The notes under the pieces: model-generated
What the model was told of the DNA's origin: nothing
The model's input: only the letters and a program-made list of their open reading frames with translations
The model's database searches: none
Position numbers and translations under genes: made by a program
Shown here: in pieces, positions 7,381 to 57,046 of the stretch
Numbering within the stretch: position 1 is the first letter of the stretch
Layout: each line of letters begins with the position of its first letter
NCBI GenBank assembly: GCA_035944555.1
Contig: DASZAY010000021.1
Coordinates: 66,415-130,414, forward strand
DNA: 64,000 bases
From: Thermomicrobiales bacterium
GTDB lineage: Bacteria; Chloroflexota; Chloroflexia; Thermomicrobiales; UBA6265
Direction of reading: 5' to 3'

Positions 7381-8307
7381 ATGGCGACGACGATCGACTC
7401 CGGCGACCGTCCGGTCGCTGCGCTGGACGTCACGGTCCCGGCGACCGGCAATTCCATCGGCCGGACCGTCCTGGGTGGTGGCTGGCTGGGCGTCCGGTAC
7501 GTCCTCCTCGGCCTTTACATGGTCCTCTGCCTCTACCCGTTCCTCTGGATGGTGGCGACCTCGCTCCGCACGGCGCGCGGCGTGTACGAGGCCGGGACGT
7601 CGCTGTGGGTCTCCGAGCCGCAGTGGCAGAACTATGCCGACTTCTGGGTGGCCGCCAACATCCCGCGCGCGGCGGTCAACACGGTACTGATCACCGCCGC
7701 CTGCATGGTGATCACCATCCTGACGACGTCGATGACCGCCTACGCCGTCTCCCGGACCGATTTTCCCGGGCGCCGCGCCATCATGTTCGCACTGGTCACG
7801 ACGCTGCTCATCCCGGGCGAGATGCTTGTTATCCCGACCTTCTACGTCAACCGGTCGCTTCATCTGATCGGTGACTGGAAGGCATTGATCGCGGTGATCC
7901 TCGTCATGACGGCCGGGGCGCAGGTCTTCAACATCTACCTGCTGCTTGGTCATTTCAACACCATCCCGCGCGACCTGTTCGACAGCGCGGAGCTCGACGG
8001 CGAGAGCTACTTCGGCGCCTACTGGCGGATCGCCTTCCCGTTGATCCGACCCGCCCTGGCAACCGTCACACTCCTGACGTTCATGGGCATCTGGAACGCG
8101 TATCTGATCCCGCTGGTCTATCTGGCCCCCCTCCCCGACTTCCAGACCCTGACCATCGCGCTGATCCAGTACTCCAAGCAGTACCAGACGCTGTACCAGA
8201 TCATGGCCGCTGGCGCGGTCATCACCCTCATCCCGGTCATGATCGTCTTTGTCTTCCTGCAGCGGTACTTCATCCGTGGCCTGACCGAGGGCGCAACCAA
8301 GGGATGA
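7381..8307 (+). CDS. Carbohydrate ABC transporter permease (MalG-like)
   Basis: EAA-loop motif DSAELDGESYFGAYWRIAFPLIRP. Six predicted TM segments. The start lies 4 nt after the upstream stop. Confidence 0.85.
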   Translation: MATTIDSGDRPVAALDVTVPATGNSIGRTVLGGGWLGVRYVLLGLYMVLCLYPFLWMVATSLRTARGVYEAGTSLWVSEPQWQNYADFWVAANIPRAAVNTVLITAACMVITILTTSMTAYAVSRTDFPGRRAIMFALVTTLLIPGEMLVIPTFYVNRSLHLIGDWKALIAVILVMTAGAQVFNIYLLLGHFNTIPRDLFDSAELDGESYFGAYWRIAFPLIRPALATVTLLTFMGIWNAYLIPLVYLAPLPDFQTLTIALIQYSKQYQTLYQIMAAGAVITLIPVMIVFVFLQRYFIRGLTEGATKG

Positions 8308-8359
8308 TTCCGGGGTCTCGGGTGGACAACCGTCGAGGTACGGGTTGACCACCATCCGG

Positions 8360-8388
8360 TTGCCAACCCGAACCCCGACGGCTATGAT
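8360..8388 (+). promoter_or_regulatory. Candidate promoter of the lysC-asd leader
   Basis: TTGCCA (8360-8365), a 17-nt spacer and TATGAT (8383-8388). The predicted TSS falls at about 8395, which coincides with an ATG. Confidence 0.45.
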
Positions 8389-8481
8389 GCGAGCATGAGC
8401 GCCAACGTCGGAGACCGCTGCTACGGAACGCGATTGTTCAACTCGCCCTCGCGCGGGATGTCGCCGGACCAGCGCGCCTCG

Positions 8482-8562
8482 ATGGCGATCACCATGACCA
8501 TCATGATTACCACTGGCGGCACCGGGATTACCCGGCCTGCTGTCGTGGTGTTCAGGGGGTAG
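8482..8562 (+). CDS. Putative Thr/Ile/Met-rich leader peptide (26 aa; in-frame 55-aa version from ATG 8395)
   Basis: Manual translation gives MAITMTIMITTGGTGITRPAVVVFRG*. Of the first 17 residues, 13 are Met, Ile or Thr. It uses locally AT-rich codons in a GC-rich genome. It lies directly upstream of aspartate kinase. It is below the track's 60-aa cutoff. No clear SD precedes ATG 8482. Confidence 0.45.
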   Translation: MAITMTIMITTGGTGITRPAVVVFRG

Positions 8563-8596
8563 CGGGAAACGCAGACCAACTGACGGCACGGTGAGC

Positions 8597-8631
8597 AGGC
8601 GGGAGGCACACAGCCCCCCGCCTCTTCGTTT
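8597..8631 (+). terminator. Candidate attenuator terminator between the leader ORF and lysC
   Basis: AGGCGGGAGG (8597-8606) pairs with CCCCCGCCT (8615-8623), with one bulged A. The sequence CTTCGTTTG follows. The segment 8531-8541 (CCCgGCCTGCT) can alternatively pair with 8594-8603 (AGCAGGCGGG). Confidence 0.4.
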
Positions 8632-8699
8632 GCCCGCGCGCAGCCATCCGGCGGCCCGGCGGGTGAGCGGGATGCACCCGCAACAGGGGATTGACCACG

Positions 8700-10145
8700 A
8701 TGATTGTCCTGAAGTTCGGCGGCACGTCGGTGCAGAATGCGGAACGGGTCCGGGAATCGGCCCGGATTGCGGCGGCCCAGCCTTCGCCCCGTGTCGTGGT
8801 CGTTTCCGCGGCGTCGGGTGTCACCAATCTCCTGCTGGAAGCGGCACGGGGAGCGGGCGACGGCTCAGCCCGAACCATGAACCGGGCTGTTGAGCGCATC
8901 CATGCCATCCACGCCGAGATCATCGATGGCCTGTCCAATCCGCGGGAGCAGTCCGCCGCCCGGACCTCGATCGACACCCTGCACGGCCAGTTGGACGCCG
9001 TGCTTGCCGAAGTCGCCGCCGCTGGCGAGCTGTCCAGCCGGCATTCCGACCGGGTGGTGTCGTTCGGCGAGAAGTCAATGAGCGTGCTGATGGCCGCCAC
9101 GCTCCGTGACCGGGGAACTGCCGCCGCCCACGTCTTCGCCGACACGGTCGTCGGGACCGACGACCGCTTCGGCAGCGCCCGTCTGGATCGTGCCCGCACT
9201 CGCGCCAACGCCCAGGCGCTGATCCGCCCGCTCTGTGCGGAGGGCAAGACGGTCGTCGTCACCGGGTTCATCGGCCATGCGCCCGACGGCTCGACTACGA
9301 CGCTCGGACGAGGAGGCTCCGATTACAGCGCCACGATCCTCGGTGCGGCCCTCGACGCCGACGAGGTTCAGATCTGGACGGATGTCCCCGGGGTGTTGAG
9401 CGCCGACCCCCGCAAGGTCGCCGGCGCCCGCGTCGTGCCCCAGATCAGCTACGACGAGGCGCAGGAGTTGGCCCACTTCGGCGCCAAGGTCCTGCATCCC
9501 CGCACGATCCGTCCGGCCGTCGCCCGCGACATCCCGGTGCGGATCCTCTCGACATACGCGGCCACCGAACCCGGCACGGTCGTCACGAGGGAGCCACTCG
9601 GCGGTGGCATCAAGGCGGTCACGGCGTTGAGTGGATTGCTCCTGCTGACCATTGACGTGCAGGAGATCGAGGACCTGGCCGGAGCGGCGGCCGGAGTCTT
9701 CGGGACGCTCCACGCCGACGGGGCCGAGGTGGCCTTCGCCGCCCAGGCGTCGTCACGTCGGCGGATGACGTACCTCGTCGACGAGGTCACGGGCGGCTGT
9801 GAGCGGCTCAAGGCCCGGATCCAGTCCGTGGTCGAGGAGTTCGAGGCGGAGGTGAACTGCACCGACAACGTCGCGCTCATCGCCGTGGTCGGCGCCGGAG
9901 CGGCCGGTCATCCCGCGACCGTCAGCCGCATGCTCAAGACGCTGGAGCGGGAGGGCATCCCGGTCCTTGCAATGAACCAGCAGGACGCCAACGTGGCGCT
10001 GGTTGCGGCCGTACCCGAACCGCTCGCCCAGCAGGCGACGCTGACCCTGCACCGTGAGCTGGTCGAATCGTCGCTGCCGACTACCCCGCCGGCCCGGCGG
10101 CGGCGGCGAGCTTCGCTGCTCGACGAGCCGATTCGGGTCGGCTGA
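8700..10145 (+). CDS. lysC: Aspartate kinase
   Basis: N-terminal MIVLKFGGTSV kinase motif and a C-terminal ACT-like regulatory region. An AGGGGA SD lies 9 nt upstream of ATG 8700; the track's TTG 8691 is less likely. The asd gene follows. Confidence 0.9.
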   Translation: MIVLKFGGTSVQNAERVRESARIAAAQPSPRVVVVSAASGVTNLLLEAARGAGDGSARTMNRAVERIHAIHAEIIDGLSNPREQSAARTSIDTLHGQLDAVLAEVAAAGELSSRHSDRVVSFGEKSMSVLMAATLRDRGTAAAHVFADTVVGTDDRFGSARLDRARTRANAQALIRPLCAEGKTVVVTGFIGHAPDGSTTTLGRGGSDYSATILGAALDADEVQIWTDVPGVLSADPRKVAGARVVPQISYDEAQELAHFGAKVLHPRTIRPAVARDIPVRILSTYAATEPGTVVTREPLGGGIKAVTALSGLLLLTIDVQEIEDLAGAAAGVFGTLHADGAEVAFAAQASSRRRMTYLVDEVTGGCERLKARIQSVVEEFEAEVNCTDNVALIAVVGAGAAGHPATVSRMLKTLEREGIPVLAMNQQDANVALVAAVPEPLAQQATLTLHRELVESSLPTTPPARRRRRASLLDEPIRVG

Positions 10146-10210: not shown

Positions 10211-11269
10211 ATGACGGATCAGCGAATTCCCTGCGCGGTTCTCGGCGCGACCGGCAATGTCGGCCAGCGGTTCATCCAGTTGCTCGAGCGGCACCCCTGG
10301 TTCCGCCCGGCCGAACTCGTCGCCTCCGAGCGCAGTGCCGGACGGCCGTTTCGGGAGGCAGCTACCTGGCGCGTCGACGCCGAGATGCCGGAGAGCGTCC
10401 GCGACTTGACCGTCCGGGGCTACGACGACCAGCTCGACAGTCCCGTCGTGTTCTCCGCCCTGCCTGGCGAGACCGCCGGTGAAATCGAGCAGCGGATGGC
10501 TCGCGAAGGACGCGCGGTCCTGACCAACACCAGCACCCACCGGGCGGACCCCGACGTTCCTTTGATGATTGCGGAGGTCAACCCGGAACATGTTGCGGCA
10601 ATCCCCATCCAGCAGGCGAGACGTGACTGGTCCGGTTTTATCGTCGCCAACGCCAACTGCTCGGCGATCCACCTGACGCTTGCCCTCAAGCCCCTGCATG
10701 CCGCGTTCGGTATCGATTCGGTCATGGTCACGACGCTCCAGGCCATCTCCGGCGCGGGCTACCCGGGCGTCCCGTCGATGGATATCGTGGACAACGTGGT
10801 CCCGTATATCGGTAACGAGGAAGAGAAGCTGGAGACAGAGCCTCTCAAGATGCTGGGGCAGTGGCGAGATGGCGCGTTCCATGATGCCGACTTCCGGCTG
10901 AGTACGACCTGCACCCGCGTGGCCGTCCGGGACGGGCATACCGAGAGCGTCAACATCCGCCTGCGGATGGATGCATCGCCATCAGATGTCGCCGACGCCA
11001 TGACCCGCTTCCAGGCGGCGCCGCAACTGCTCGAGCTGCCTTCGGCACCCAGGCGGCCGATCGTCGTCCGCAACGAGGTCAACCGGCCGCAGCCCCTGCT
11101 CGACCGCGAGACCGAGCGCGGGATGGCGTCCGTCGTCGGTCGGATCCGACCATGTCCGCTGATGGGGGTCAAGTTCGTGGTCCTGGGACACAACACGATC
11201 CGCGGAGCGGCTGGTGCGAGCATCCTCAACGCGGAACTGCTCAAGGCGCAGGATCTTCTCCCGTCCTGA
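10211..11269 (+). CDS. asd: Aspartate-semialdehyde dehydrogenase
   Basis: NAD(P) motif LGATGNVGQ and the active-site Cys context ANANCSAIHL. An AAGGAG SD lies upstream. It sits directly downstream of lysC. Confidence 0.9.
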   Translation: MTDQRIPCAVLGATGNVGQRFIQLLERHPWFRPAELVASERSAGRPFREAATWRVDAEMPESVRDLTVRGYDDQLDSPVVFSALPGETAGEIEQRMAREGRAVLTNTSTHRADPDVPLMIAEVNPEHVAAIPIQQARRDWSGFIVANANCSAIHLTLALKPLHAAFGIDSVMVTTLQAISGAGYPGVPSMDIVDNVVPYIGNEEEKLETEPLKMLGQWRDGAFHDADFRLSTTCTRVAVRDGHTESVNIRLRMDASPSDVADAMTRFQAAPQLLELPSAPRRPIVVRNEVNRPQPLLDRETERGMASVVGRIRPCPLMGVKFVVLGHNTIRGAAGASILNAELLKAQDLLPS

Positions 11270-11479: not shown

Positions 11480-11998
11480 ATGGCGTACGATTTCCAGACC
11501 ATTGACCCCGACACCGACATGTCTGAATTCAATCTGCCGCCGGAGGACGGCAAGCGGATCGAGCTGGCGCTCCACGCCCTTCCGGATCTCTGGCAGGCGT
11601 ACCAGCGGCGACTCCTCAAGCAGCAATACTTCAAGGGCGTCACGTCGGGTCAGGTCCGGCTCCTGACGGTGCTGTTGCACAACGCGCCATGCTCGGTCGG
11701 GACGGTCGCGTCTGCCCTGAACATCTCCATGGGAGCGGCAAGCGAGAGCATCGACAAGCTCGTCGACCTCGGCTACATCAGCCGTGAGCATAGCCGCATT
11801 GATCGTCGCCAGGTCATCCTCGACCTCACCGACGAGGCCCGGGAAATCGCCGCACACGTCCGGCGCATCCGCATCTCGCATATCGCGGCCGTCTTCGAGC
11901 AGCTCTCCCCCGCCGAACGCGACGGGTTCGTCAAAGGCATGATGCTCTACCGGGACGTGCTCTCAAATGCGTCGGAACAGCCCGGCGGGACCGAATGA
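11480..11998 (+). CDS. MarR family transcriptional regulator
   Basis: The winged-helix region GTVASALNISMGAASESIDKLVDLGYISREHSRIDRRQVILDLT is typical of MarR. Confidence 0.8.
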   Translation: MAYDFQTIDPDTDMSEFNLPPEDGKRIELALHALPDLWQAYQRRLLKQQYFKGVTSGQVRLLTVLLHNAPCSVGTVASALNISMGAASESIDKLVDLGYISREHSRIDRRQVILDLTDEAREIAAHVRRIRISHIAAVFEQLSPAERDGFVKGMMLYRDVLSNASEQPGGTE

Positions 11999-56002: not shown

Positions 56003-57046
56003 ATGGTCGCGACCGCGCCCGACCGCACCGAGGCTGCCGAGCAGGCACCTTCGAGTCCGGCACCTGCCCGCCAGGTAAGCACCTATGGCCAGCCCCGACC
56101 GCAGGCGCTTCGCCTGCTCCTCGAGGCCGGCGTCCACTTCGGCCACCAGGCCAAGCGGTGGAACCCGAAGATGAAGCGCCACATCTTCGGCGAGCGTAAC
56201 GGCATCCACATCCTTGACTTGCAGCAGACCGTCTACCGGCTCGAGGACGCGCAGAAGTTCATCGCCGACACCACGTCCCGTGGCGGCAAGATCCTGTTCG
56301 TCGGCACCAAGAAGCAGGCGACGGACATCGTCGAGCGCGAGGCGCTCCGATCCAACCAGTACTTCATCAACCGGCGCTGGATGGGCGGCACGCTGACGAA
56401 CTTCGTCACGATCCGCTCCCGCCTCCGCGTACTGAAGAACCTCCAGGGCCAGCTCGAGCGCGGCGAGTTCGACTACCTGCCCAAGCAGGAAGCCGCCAAG
56501 AAGCTCCTCGAACTGGAGAAGCTCGAGAAGAGCCTCGGTGGTATGCGTGACATGACGCAGCTGCCCTCCGCGGTCTTTATCATCGACACCCGCCGCGAGC
56601 AGCTGGCTGTGCATGAGGCTCGCCGCCTGGGGATCCCCGTCATCGCCCTGACCGACTCCAACGCCGATCCGGACGACGCCGACTACGCCATTCCCGCCAA
56701 CGACGACGCCATCCGCGCCCTTCGTCTCCTCGCCGCGTCCATCGCGGACGCGGCGATCGACGGCACGACCCGCTTCGAGAGCCGTGGACCCGAGGCTCAG
56801 GCCGAGGGTGGCCGTGGCCGCCGCGGCGGTGACGGACCGGTCACCGCCGAGGACTTCGCCAATCGCCCGGCTCGTGGGCAGCAGCAGGCTGGCGGACGCC
56901 AGCAGCGTCCGGCCCAGCCTGCTGCTCCGGCTCCCGCCGAGCAGTCCGCTCCGGCTGAGGTGACCGCACCGGCCGCGGTTGCGGCGGAAGTCCCGGCCGC
57001 TGAGGCGGCTCCGACGACCGACGCCCCGGCGACGACCGAGTCCTAG
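56003..57046 (+). CDS. rpsB: 30S ribosomal protein S2 with N- and C-terminal low-complexity extensions
   Basis: Core motif LLEAGVHFGHQAKRWNPKM. An AGGGAGAA SD lies upstream. There are about 35 extra N-terminal and about 90 extra C-terminal residues (Ala/Pro/Glu-rich). Confidence 0.9.
   Translation: MVATAPDRTEAAEQAPSSPAPARQVSTYGQPRPQALRLLLEAGVHFGHQAKRWNPKMKRHIFGERNGIHILDLQQTVYRLEDAQKFIADTTSRGGKILFVGTKKQATDIVEREALRSNQYFINRRWMGGTLTNFVTIRSRLRVLKNLQGQLERGEFDYLPKQEAAKKLLELEKLEKSLGGMRDMTQLPSAVFIIDTRREQLAVHEARRLGIPVIALTDSNADPDDADYAIPANDDAIRALRLLAASIADAAIDGTTRFESRGPEAQAEGGRGRRGGDGPVTAEDFANRPARGQQQAGGRQQRPAQPAAPAPAEQSAPAEVTAPAAVAAEVPAAEAAPTTDAPATTES

Follow-up and report, generated by a model that had tools for sequence, protein, structure and literature searches.

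A probable leader-peptide attenuator of the aspartate kinase operon ask-asd in Thermomicrobiales

In a 64,000-nucleotide stretch of a Thermomicrobiales (Chloroflexota) genome (contig DASZAY010000021.1, positions 66,415 to 130,414; hereafter, the window), a 392-bp gap separates the end of a permease open reading frame (ORF) at 8307 from the ATG at 8700 of ask, the aspartate kinase gene, which is followed by asd, the aspartate-semialdehyde dehydrogenase gene. The gap contains a promoter, a small ORF dominated by codons for threonine (Thr, T), isoleucine (Ile, I), and methionine (Met, M), a predicted terminator hairpin, and a segment inside the ORF that can pair with the 5′ arm of that hairpin. 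This ask-asd element is very probably a ribosome-mediated (leader-peptide) transcription attenuator. It is a previously undescribed, order-wide attenuator of a known class, and the mechanism itself is not new; functionally it is thrL-like, albeit not homologous to Escherichia coli thrL. The evidence consists of the elements themselves, their conservation, a codon bias specific to one reading frame, mutually exclusive helices, and compensatory changes. A preliminary description of the same DNA had placed four elements in a gap of ~390 bp and had read them as the layout of ribosome-mediated attenuation; all four lie where it placed them and exceed chance expectation, and the layout is supported by 43 of 45 related loci together with compensatory changes in the terminator and at two antiterminator positions. 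Coordinates are collected in Table 1.

Table 1. Features of the ask-asd locus in the window, and T-box elements at the same locus in other Chloroflexota
Feature	Position	Strand	Basis or remark
Upstream gene	ends 8307		ABC permease ORF, sugar ABC operon
-35 box TTGCCA	8360..8365	+	promoter scan
-10 box TATGAT	8383..8388	+	promoter scan
Leader ORF, 55 codons + TAG	8395..8562	+	ORF call; leader search in relatives
Regulatory codon run M-A-I-T-M-T-I-M-I-T-T	8482..8514	+	10/11 Thr, Ile or Met
Region 1, 5′ arm of 1:2 anti-antiterminator hairpin	8508..8526	+	fold of 8506-8552
Region 2 (CCCGGCCUGCUGUCGUGGUG), inside ORF, encodes ..RPAVVV	8531..8550	+	common to 1:2 and 2:3
Antiterminator apical part, holds leader stop TAG 8560-8562	8552..8585	+	fold
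Region 3, antiterminator 3′ arm (CACGG..AGCAGGCGGG)	8587..8603	+	fold
Terminator hairpin (3:4)	8597..8623	+	fold
Interrupted U-tract CUUCGUUUG	8624..8632	+	read from sequence
Shine-Dalgarno-like AGGGGA of ask	8685..8690	+	read from sequence; 9 nt 5′ of ATG
ask, aspartate kinase, AA_kinase + ACT domains	8700..10145	+	Pfam; NCBIfam TIGR00657
asd, aspartate-semialdehyde dehydrogenase	10211..11269	+	Pfam; NCBIfam TIGR00978
T-box loci	L047:2183-2430, L048:2207-2461, L049:2220-2461, L052:2082-2324		Rfam RF00230, full-length

The leader ORF of the window encodes a product of 55 amino acids (aa) (MSANVGDRCYGTRLFNSPSRGMSPDQRASMAITMTIMITTGGTGITRPAVVVFRG) with the C-terminal end MAITMTIMITTGGTGITRPAVVVFRG directly before the stop codon. 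Downstream of the regulatory run there are additional T, I, and T codons at 8521-8532, and 13 of the 17 residues counted from M(8482) are M, I, or T, as the preliminary description had reported. The run is unique in the 64 kb: an 11-residue stretch with ≥9 T/I/M occurs once in the six frames of the window and in 0 of 20 shuffles. The leader contains no lysine (Lys) codons. A search of the window for other leaderless small ORFs with biased amino acid content passed the ask leader alone; a tryptophan (Trp)-containing ORF at 56184 on the minus strand was dismissed because it sits within a 573-aa ORF.

To place the element in context, we retrieved ~45 Thermomicrobiales ask loci via the Ask protein; the window Ask is 81-84% identical to the Ask of Thermomicrobiales metagenome-assembled genomes. 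A -10 box, a 6-7-nt spacing, a start codon, and a T/I/M-rich ORF were found in 43 of 45 related ask loci. One of the two remaining loci is cut by a contig end and the other extends beyond the 420-nt upstream extraction; both show the 3′ part of the element. Carriers of the element include metagenome-assembled genomes of Sphaerobacteraceae. In each of the ~45 loci, the best T/I/M-rich stretch 5′ of ask belongs to a small ORF with a recognizable C-terminus, examples being ..ITLPAGPEGRD, ..ICWPAGPGVR, and ..ITRPAVVVFRG, each followed by the stop codon. A short upstream ORF enriched in codons for pathway end products is thus present in the window and in the family, and the comparison of relatives that the preliminary description had proposed shows a conserved T/I/M ORF and a covarying terminator. 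The T/I/M leader ORF was not seen 5′ of ask in more distant Chloroflexota.

The leader ORFs are 33-55 codons long, apart from one that is called at 70 codons (L036 only, with a frameshift). In the window and its three closest relatives, L001-L003, the ORF has exactly 55 codons in all four genomes, and the first 28 aa diverge. The exceptional L036 leader (L036:1817-2029) carries a single-base deletion near the end of the ORF, which as a result runs to the ask start, and its RNA helices are intact; the deletion reflects either a faulty assembly or a naturally occurring frameshift.

We compared codon use in 42 distinct leaders with that of six window genes. Across the 21 residues 5′ of a conserved proline (Pro) codon, Thr accounts for 29%, Ile for 18%, and Met for 10%, a sum of 57% vs 15% in the window genes; Lys accounts for 5.4% of this leader core vs 1.4% in the window genes. 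The bias is specific to the reading frame: whole leaders read in frame contain 36.7% T+I+M, and the two alternative frames 4.7% and 1.4%. The peptides vary in sequence and keep their composition, as expected of regulatory codons and not of a functional peptide. Among the Ile codons of the leaders, ATT is used in 107 of 171 cases (63%), compared with 10 of 127 (8%) in the six window genes, and ACT is enriched too; this enrichment might serve to tune decoding speed or to keep the stretch weakly structured.

The promoter TTGCCA-17-TATGAT (8360-8388), which the preliminary description had also identified, is the sole sigma-70-like site that the promoter scan found in 8100-8900, where shuffles gave 0.1 sites. 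Six nucleotides lie between its -10 box and ATG 8395, the A of which is the 7th base; the earlier proposal of a leaderless start at this ATG is strongly supported by the spacing. The leader has no Shine-Dalgarno (SD) sequence; every locus tested instead shows the arrangement TTGnnn-17-TAnnnT, 6-7 nt, ATG/GTG. A TAnnnT box occurs in all 44 leaders (TATAGT in 21, TATGAT in 16), and its distance to the ATG or GTG is 6 nt in 16 loci and 7 nt in 28, a spacing that was itself a criterion of the leader search. Where upstream DNA was long enough (38 loci), a TTGnnn box was always present, 17 nt from the -10 box in 37 loci and 18 nt in one; in L002 the leaderless ATG is the sole in-frame start. From this rigid geometry of -35 box, -10 box, and start codon, the transcript is predicted to begin with the start codon itself; the leader mRNA is therefore probably leaderless, with a predicted 5′ end at or next to A8395.

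Downstream of the regulatory codons, the RNA can form three competing structures, each of which folds far better than shuffled sequence. The fold of 8506-8552 (-27 kcal/mol, z = -4.9) pairs region 1 (8508-8526) with region 2 (8531-8550). The minimum-free-energy fold of 8527-8603 (-43.3 kcal/mol, z = -5.75) is an antiterminator in which region 2 is paired with region 3 (8587-8603); its base is formed by 8531-8541 with 8594-8603, the very pairing proposed in the preliminary description. The GC-rich hairpin at 8597-8623, likewise recovered, folds at -20.3 kcal/mol (z = -3.1) and is the predicted terminator. Nucleotides 8597-8603 are common to region 3 and to the 5′ arm of the terminator, so the antiterminator helix, whose own 5′ arm lies in the leader ORF, excludes the terminator.

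We propose the following mechanism. Transcription would start at or next to A8395, the mRNA would begin with the leader AUG, and a 70S ribosome would load on its 5′ end. The three competing structures would then be 1:2 (8508-8526 with 8531-8550), 2:3 (8531-8550 with 8587-8603), and 3:4 (8597-8623 with the U-rich tail). With charged Thr-, Ile-, and Met-tRNAs available, the ribosome would pass the run and occupy region 2 while regions 3 and 4 are transcribed; with region 2 occupied, 3:4 would form and transcription would end near 8625-8634. If any of the Thr-, Ile-, or Met-tRNAs is scarce, a ribosome stalled at 8488-8514 would cover or block region 1 and free region 2, which would form 2:3 as region 3 emerges and withhold 8597-8603, i.e., 7 of the 11 nt of the terminator 5′ arm. 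Once 2:3 has formed, the polymerase would read on into ask-asd. In the case of no translation, 1:2 would form and the terminator would be the default.

We examined the helices on an alignment of 43 sequences (A1). The terminator (columns 250-260 x 271-281) is paired in 88% of cells and shows 27 double-change cells, a value reached by 0 of 500 shuffles. The U-tract of most relatives is UUUUUUG or UUUUUGU, i.e., canonical, with 5-8 U. The core of the antiterminator, GCCUGCC:GGCAGGC, was predicted by RNAalifold unaided, and 83% of cells pair in columns 182-195 x 240-253 compared with ≤42% when the partner is slid. Compensation from C-G to U-A occurred four times at 188:247 (the window included) and once at 187:248; at the codon level, a synonymous GCC to GCU change in region 2 is matched by G to A in region 3 four times, including the window, and an Ala-to-Val change (GUC) in L007 is likewise compensated in region 3. 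The antiterminator has a median energy of -41.9 kcal/mol and the terminator one of -20.7 kcal/mol; in the relatives the antiterminator reaches ≥3 nt further into the terminator 5′ arm than in the window. A covarying extra hairpin lies within the regulatory codons (columns 129-136 x 152-159); it shows 17 double changes (0 of 500 shuffles).

The 3′ end of the ORF is also constrained at the RNA level. The Pro codon in region 2 is CCU in 43 of 43 leaders, whereas CCU makes up 5% of the Pro codons in the window genes; the invariance of this rare codon argues that the "PAGPG" sequence is kept for the RNA and not for the peptide. The stop codon follows the CCU codon by 24 nt in 24 loci and by 21 nt in 16 (40 of 43) and lies in the apical part of the antiterminator. 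Around codons 9-14, region 1 has a conserved ACC-GGC-A whose pairing with UGCCGGU of region 2 is possible in 77% of A1 cells; when the 5′ part is folded, the core of region 2 pairs with upstream sequence in 30 of 44 loci. Because the ACC-GGC codons would form region 1 and pair with region 2, the resemblance of the window peptide to the ITTG(G/N)G ending of thrL, which the preliminary description had noted, is better explained by RNA constraint.

The genes ask and asd are invariably associated with the element. In all loci examined ask-asd lies 3′ of it, with asd after ask wherever there is enough sequence; the upstream gene is variable and is conserved in L001 only. We scanned 596 Gb of genomes with a 26-base exact pattern of the element's chassis and obtained 25 matches, 23 of them labeled Thermomicrobiales, Chloroflexia, or Chloroflexota. 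Among the 24 newly fetched matches, 22 show ask directly downstream on the same strand, and L014 was already known to lie 5′ of ask; in L205 and L210 (both Thermomicrobiales), the stretch ends before ask could appear. Since essentially all matches precede ask, the element is, as judged from these genomes, specific to the ask-asd operon and to Thermomicrobiales.

Three further results concern the edges of this distribution. A match in Streptomyces (L202) is a chance one, as it lacks a terminator, a U-tract, and an ask gene, and a looser pattern (GCCTGCCG-N30-60-GGCAGGCGRG) was uninformative, the matches listed including chance ones from many phyla. One of the 22 contigs with ask downstream, binned as Isosphaeraceae (L222, CALLYK010000230.1), carries the exact chassis followed by an ask homolog and is probably a mis-binned Thermomicrobiales contig. 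Two Thermomicrobiales loci (L058 and L080) encode a more distant Ask (38-39% identity) and have no leader-like ORF upstream; they may represent a second type of aspartate kinase in the order.

Several observations weigh against attenuation as described, or against parts of it. A strict terminator scan made no call at this locus, where the T-run CUUCGUUUG is interrupted; the U-tract is weakest in the clade of the window, the closest relatives having UUUCCGUUUG or UUUGUGUUG, and the main uncertainty for this genome is how efficiently the interrupted U-tract terminates. Even when region 2 is free, the terminator persists in the equilibrium fold of 8527-8634, so antitermination must be kinetic. 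In E. coli trp attenuation, the choice is kinetic as well. In the window clade, 29 non-regulatory codons precede the run, and ribosome and polymerase must remain coupled over ~170 nt. The final T/I/M codons lie just 1-4 codons 5′ of region 2, so stalls there would mask region 2 instead of freeing it. The antiterminator core is nearly invariant and its overall covariation score does not exceed that of shuffles; nor does the 1:2 pairing covary beyond shuffles in A1. Finally, the transcription start, actual termination, and the response to amino acids are all inferred from sequence.

The weakness of the U-tract leads to the first of three rival explanations, in which the leader senses aminoacyl-tRNA and the output here is Rho-dependent termination, an effect on mRNA stability, or an effect on translation. 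The degenerate tail shared in kind by the closest relatives and the negative result of the strict scan would fit such an output; however, the hairpin shows both conservation and covariation, canonical tracts of 5-8 U occur in most of the family, and the SD region of ask, which lies 137 nt 3′ of the leader stop, has no unusual structure (z = 0.13). We regard a non-intrinsic output as improbable.

A riboswitch-like attenuator, in which a bound metabolite or protein switches between 2:3 and 3:4 and the ORF is incidental, seems very improbable. The conserved helices do stand independently of the translation model, the C-terminal "PAGPG" conservation is RNA-driven, and translation of the ORF is a prediction. 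This explanation does not, however, account for a T/I/M bias that is frame-specific and retained while the nucleotides vary, for the constant 6-7-nt distance between -10 box and start codon in 44 leaders, or for the fixed position of the stop codon; in addition, the variable part has no conserved core resembling a ligand pocket, and no Rfam family matched, even at E values up to 10. It is barely credible that the ORF encodes a functional small protein (e.g., a hydrophobic membrane peptide) with the hairpin serving simply as the terminator of that gene. In favor of this reading, public collections list the ORF as a gene, and there the 55-aa window product is an unnamed entry and that of one relative is annotated as a "hypothetical protein," and hydrophobic and hydroxyl residues are abundant in the peptide; against it, no peptide conservation is seen beyond composition and the RNA-constrained C-terminus, the length is 33-55 aa, the element is always attached to ask-asd, and an antiterminator overlapping the ORF would be purposeless.

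Leader-peptide attenuation thus remains the preferred explanation, and we compared the element with known systems on that basis. Rfam scans of the whole window at the gathering threshold and of 8300-8760 at E up to 10 returned nothing relevant, with no match to the Thr_leader, lysine riboswitch, T-box, or SAM families; upstream of ask, the Rfam riboswitch models likewise had no match, either in the window or in 10 Thermomicrobiales loci. The E. coli thr attenuator (thrL, RF00506), which controls the aspartokinase gene thrA and the aspartate pathway, is functionally the closest system. Both have a Thr/Ile-rich leader peptide and, as predicted here, would have alternative 1:2, 2:3, and 3:4 hairpins in common; however, there is no homology in sequence or structure (no match to RF00506 at E up to 10), and the earlier label "thrL-like" therefore holds for function and fails for homology. 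The target here is a monofunctional ask plus asd, i.e., the pathway trunk, compared with thrABC in E. coli. The Thermomicrobiales leaders are rich in Met codons and, in many relatives, include Lys codons; the start is probably leaderless and not SD-led, the length is 33-55 aa compared with 21 aa, and the stop codon lies in the antiterminator loop.

Leaderless leader peptides have precedents. In Deinococcus deserti, 14 are predicted (PMC4007540), and the Corynebacterium glutamicum ilvBNC attenuator has a leaderless leader peptide and the same logic of anti-antiterminator, antiterminator, and terminator (PMC11857589). The ask leader resembles both in that translation would begin at the extreme 5′ end of the transcript, and it differs in phylum, in the regulated genes, and in its T/I/M codon set.

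In non-Thermomicrobiales Chloroflexota, we found a T-box (RF00230) directly 5′ of ask-asd, with scores of 96-100 bits (gathering score 93) at the four loci in Table 1 and the same T-box by inspection in L046 and L055; the model matched neither the window nor Thermomicrobiales loci. In the specifier loop, GAA-N-ACC-(A/C), the ACC is invariant and its neighbors vary; by the known GAA-codon-purine layout, the specifier would be the Thr codon ACC. Several of these loci also have a tRNA gene immediately 5′ of the T-box. The Thr T-box and the leader share their position and operon and would share the readout of tRNA charging and the choice between terminator and antiterminator; they differ in that the T-box senses uncharged tRNA directly, has no ORF, and has a single specifier, ACC, for Thr only. 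Because the sister lineages have a Thr T-box and Thermomicrobiales a leader peptide, ask-asd thus appears to be under tRNA-charge control across the phylum through two different devices. Another form of cis RNA control of aspartate kinase, here by a pathway end product, is the lysine riboswitch (L-box, RF00168), which precedes lysC in Firmicutes and gamma-proteobacteria; unlike the leader, it binds a metabolite and senses lysine only, and RF00168 had no match here.

Full-text literature searches for an ask or lysC leader peptide turned up no earlier description, whether from Chloroflexi, Thermomicrobia, or other organisms, and no amino acid attenuator in Chloroflexi. Attenuator-like leaders may, reportedly, exist in Thermus, one for ask and one for the lysine cluster (Tsubouchi 2005). 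Queried by term, surveys of cis-regulatory RNAs that include Chloroflexi gave only the proteobacterial Thr leader (PMC3766115), and a survey of Actinobacteria gave nothing for threonine or lysine genes (PMC1262725). The ask leader is, as far as we found, the first amino acid attenuator described in Chloroflexota, a phylum with almost no experimental data on regulation.

The element bears on how the aspartate pathway trunk is controlled, as ask-asd appears to be governed by the tRNA charging of several end products at once. For the same trunk, E. coli uses separate isoenzymes and Firmicutes use a lysine riboswitch. The Thr T-box at the same locus in sister lineages provides a natural experiment in device replacement, and the strict geometry of -35 box, -10 box, and AUG a testable case of leaderless coupling between translation and transcription. 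In addition, ~45 small ORFs that are now unnamed or "hypothetical" could be renamed as ask leader peptides, and their alignment can seed an RNA family model.

A second RNA feature lies between the leader terminator and ask in some of the relatives. At least 15 Thermomicrobiales loci with spacers of 90-220 nt have a conserved hairpin, RAGC-ARYGNY-GCUYCC, 55-170 nt 5′ of the ask ATG (e.g., at ~640-660 in L021, ~2430-2450 in L022, and ~2400-2420 in L013, and also in L016, L018, L006, L008, L017, L020, L023, L024, L026, L028, and L035). The 3′ half of the hairpin, GCUCC, is complementary to the ask SD sequence (GGAGC), and several minimum-free-energy folds pair the two. The hairpin had no Rfam match, and it is absent from the 67-nt spacer of the window. 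It could constitute a second, translational layer of control.

A broader reading combines this feature with the codon content of the leaders: the element would be a multivalent sensor of the pathway trunk that reads Thr-, Ile-, and Met-tRNA (and Lys-tRNA in many relatives), is tuned by wobble-decoded rare codons, and is placed in tandem with a second RNA element in ~15-17 relatives. We consider this combination rather unlikely. If it is true, the second element might be a translational switch that responds to a ligand or condition, and the exchange of Thr T-box and leader peptide would be a clean replacement between sensors of tRNA charge.

The ask product scored 348.8 bits against NCBIfam TIGR00657 (cutoff 208.7) and the asd product 434.5 bits against TIGR00978 (cutoff 301.2); asd begins 65 nt 3′ of ask in the same orientation. 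At the position equivalent to the ask SD sequence, relatives have GAGGAG or GAGGG.

Upstream of the leader promoter, the window contains a long imperfect hairpin at 8311-8378 (-40.7 kcal/mol, z = -2.6), which lies between the permease stop (8307) and the promoter, overlapping the -35 box, and which is absent from L001-L003. It may be a U-less terminator or insulator of the sugar ABC operon, or an operator-like palindrome, and it accounts for the spurious miRNA-like Rfam matches on the minus strand, the sole ones at the locus. Downstream, a gene for a MarR-family regulator (11480-11998) lies ~210 nt 3′ of asd; it is kept in L001-L003 with 65-70% identity and, more weakly, in ~10 further loci.

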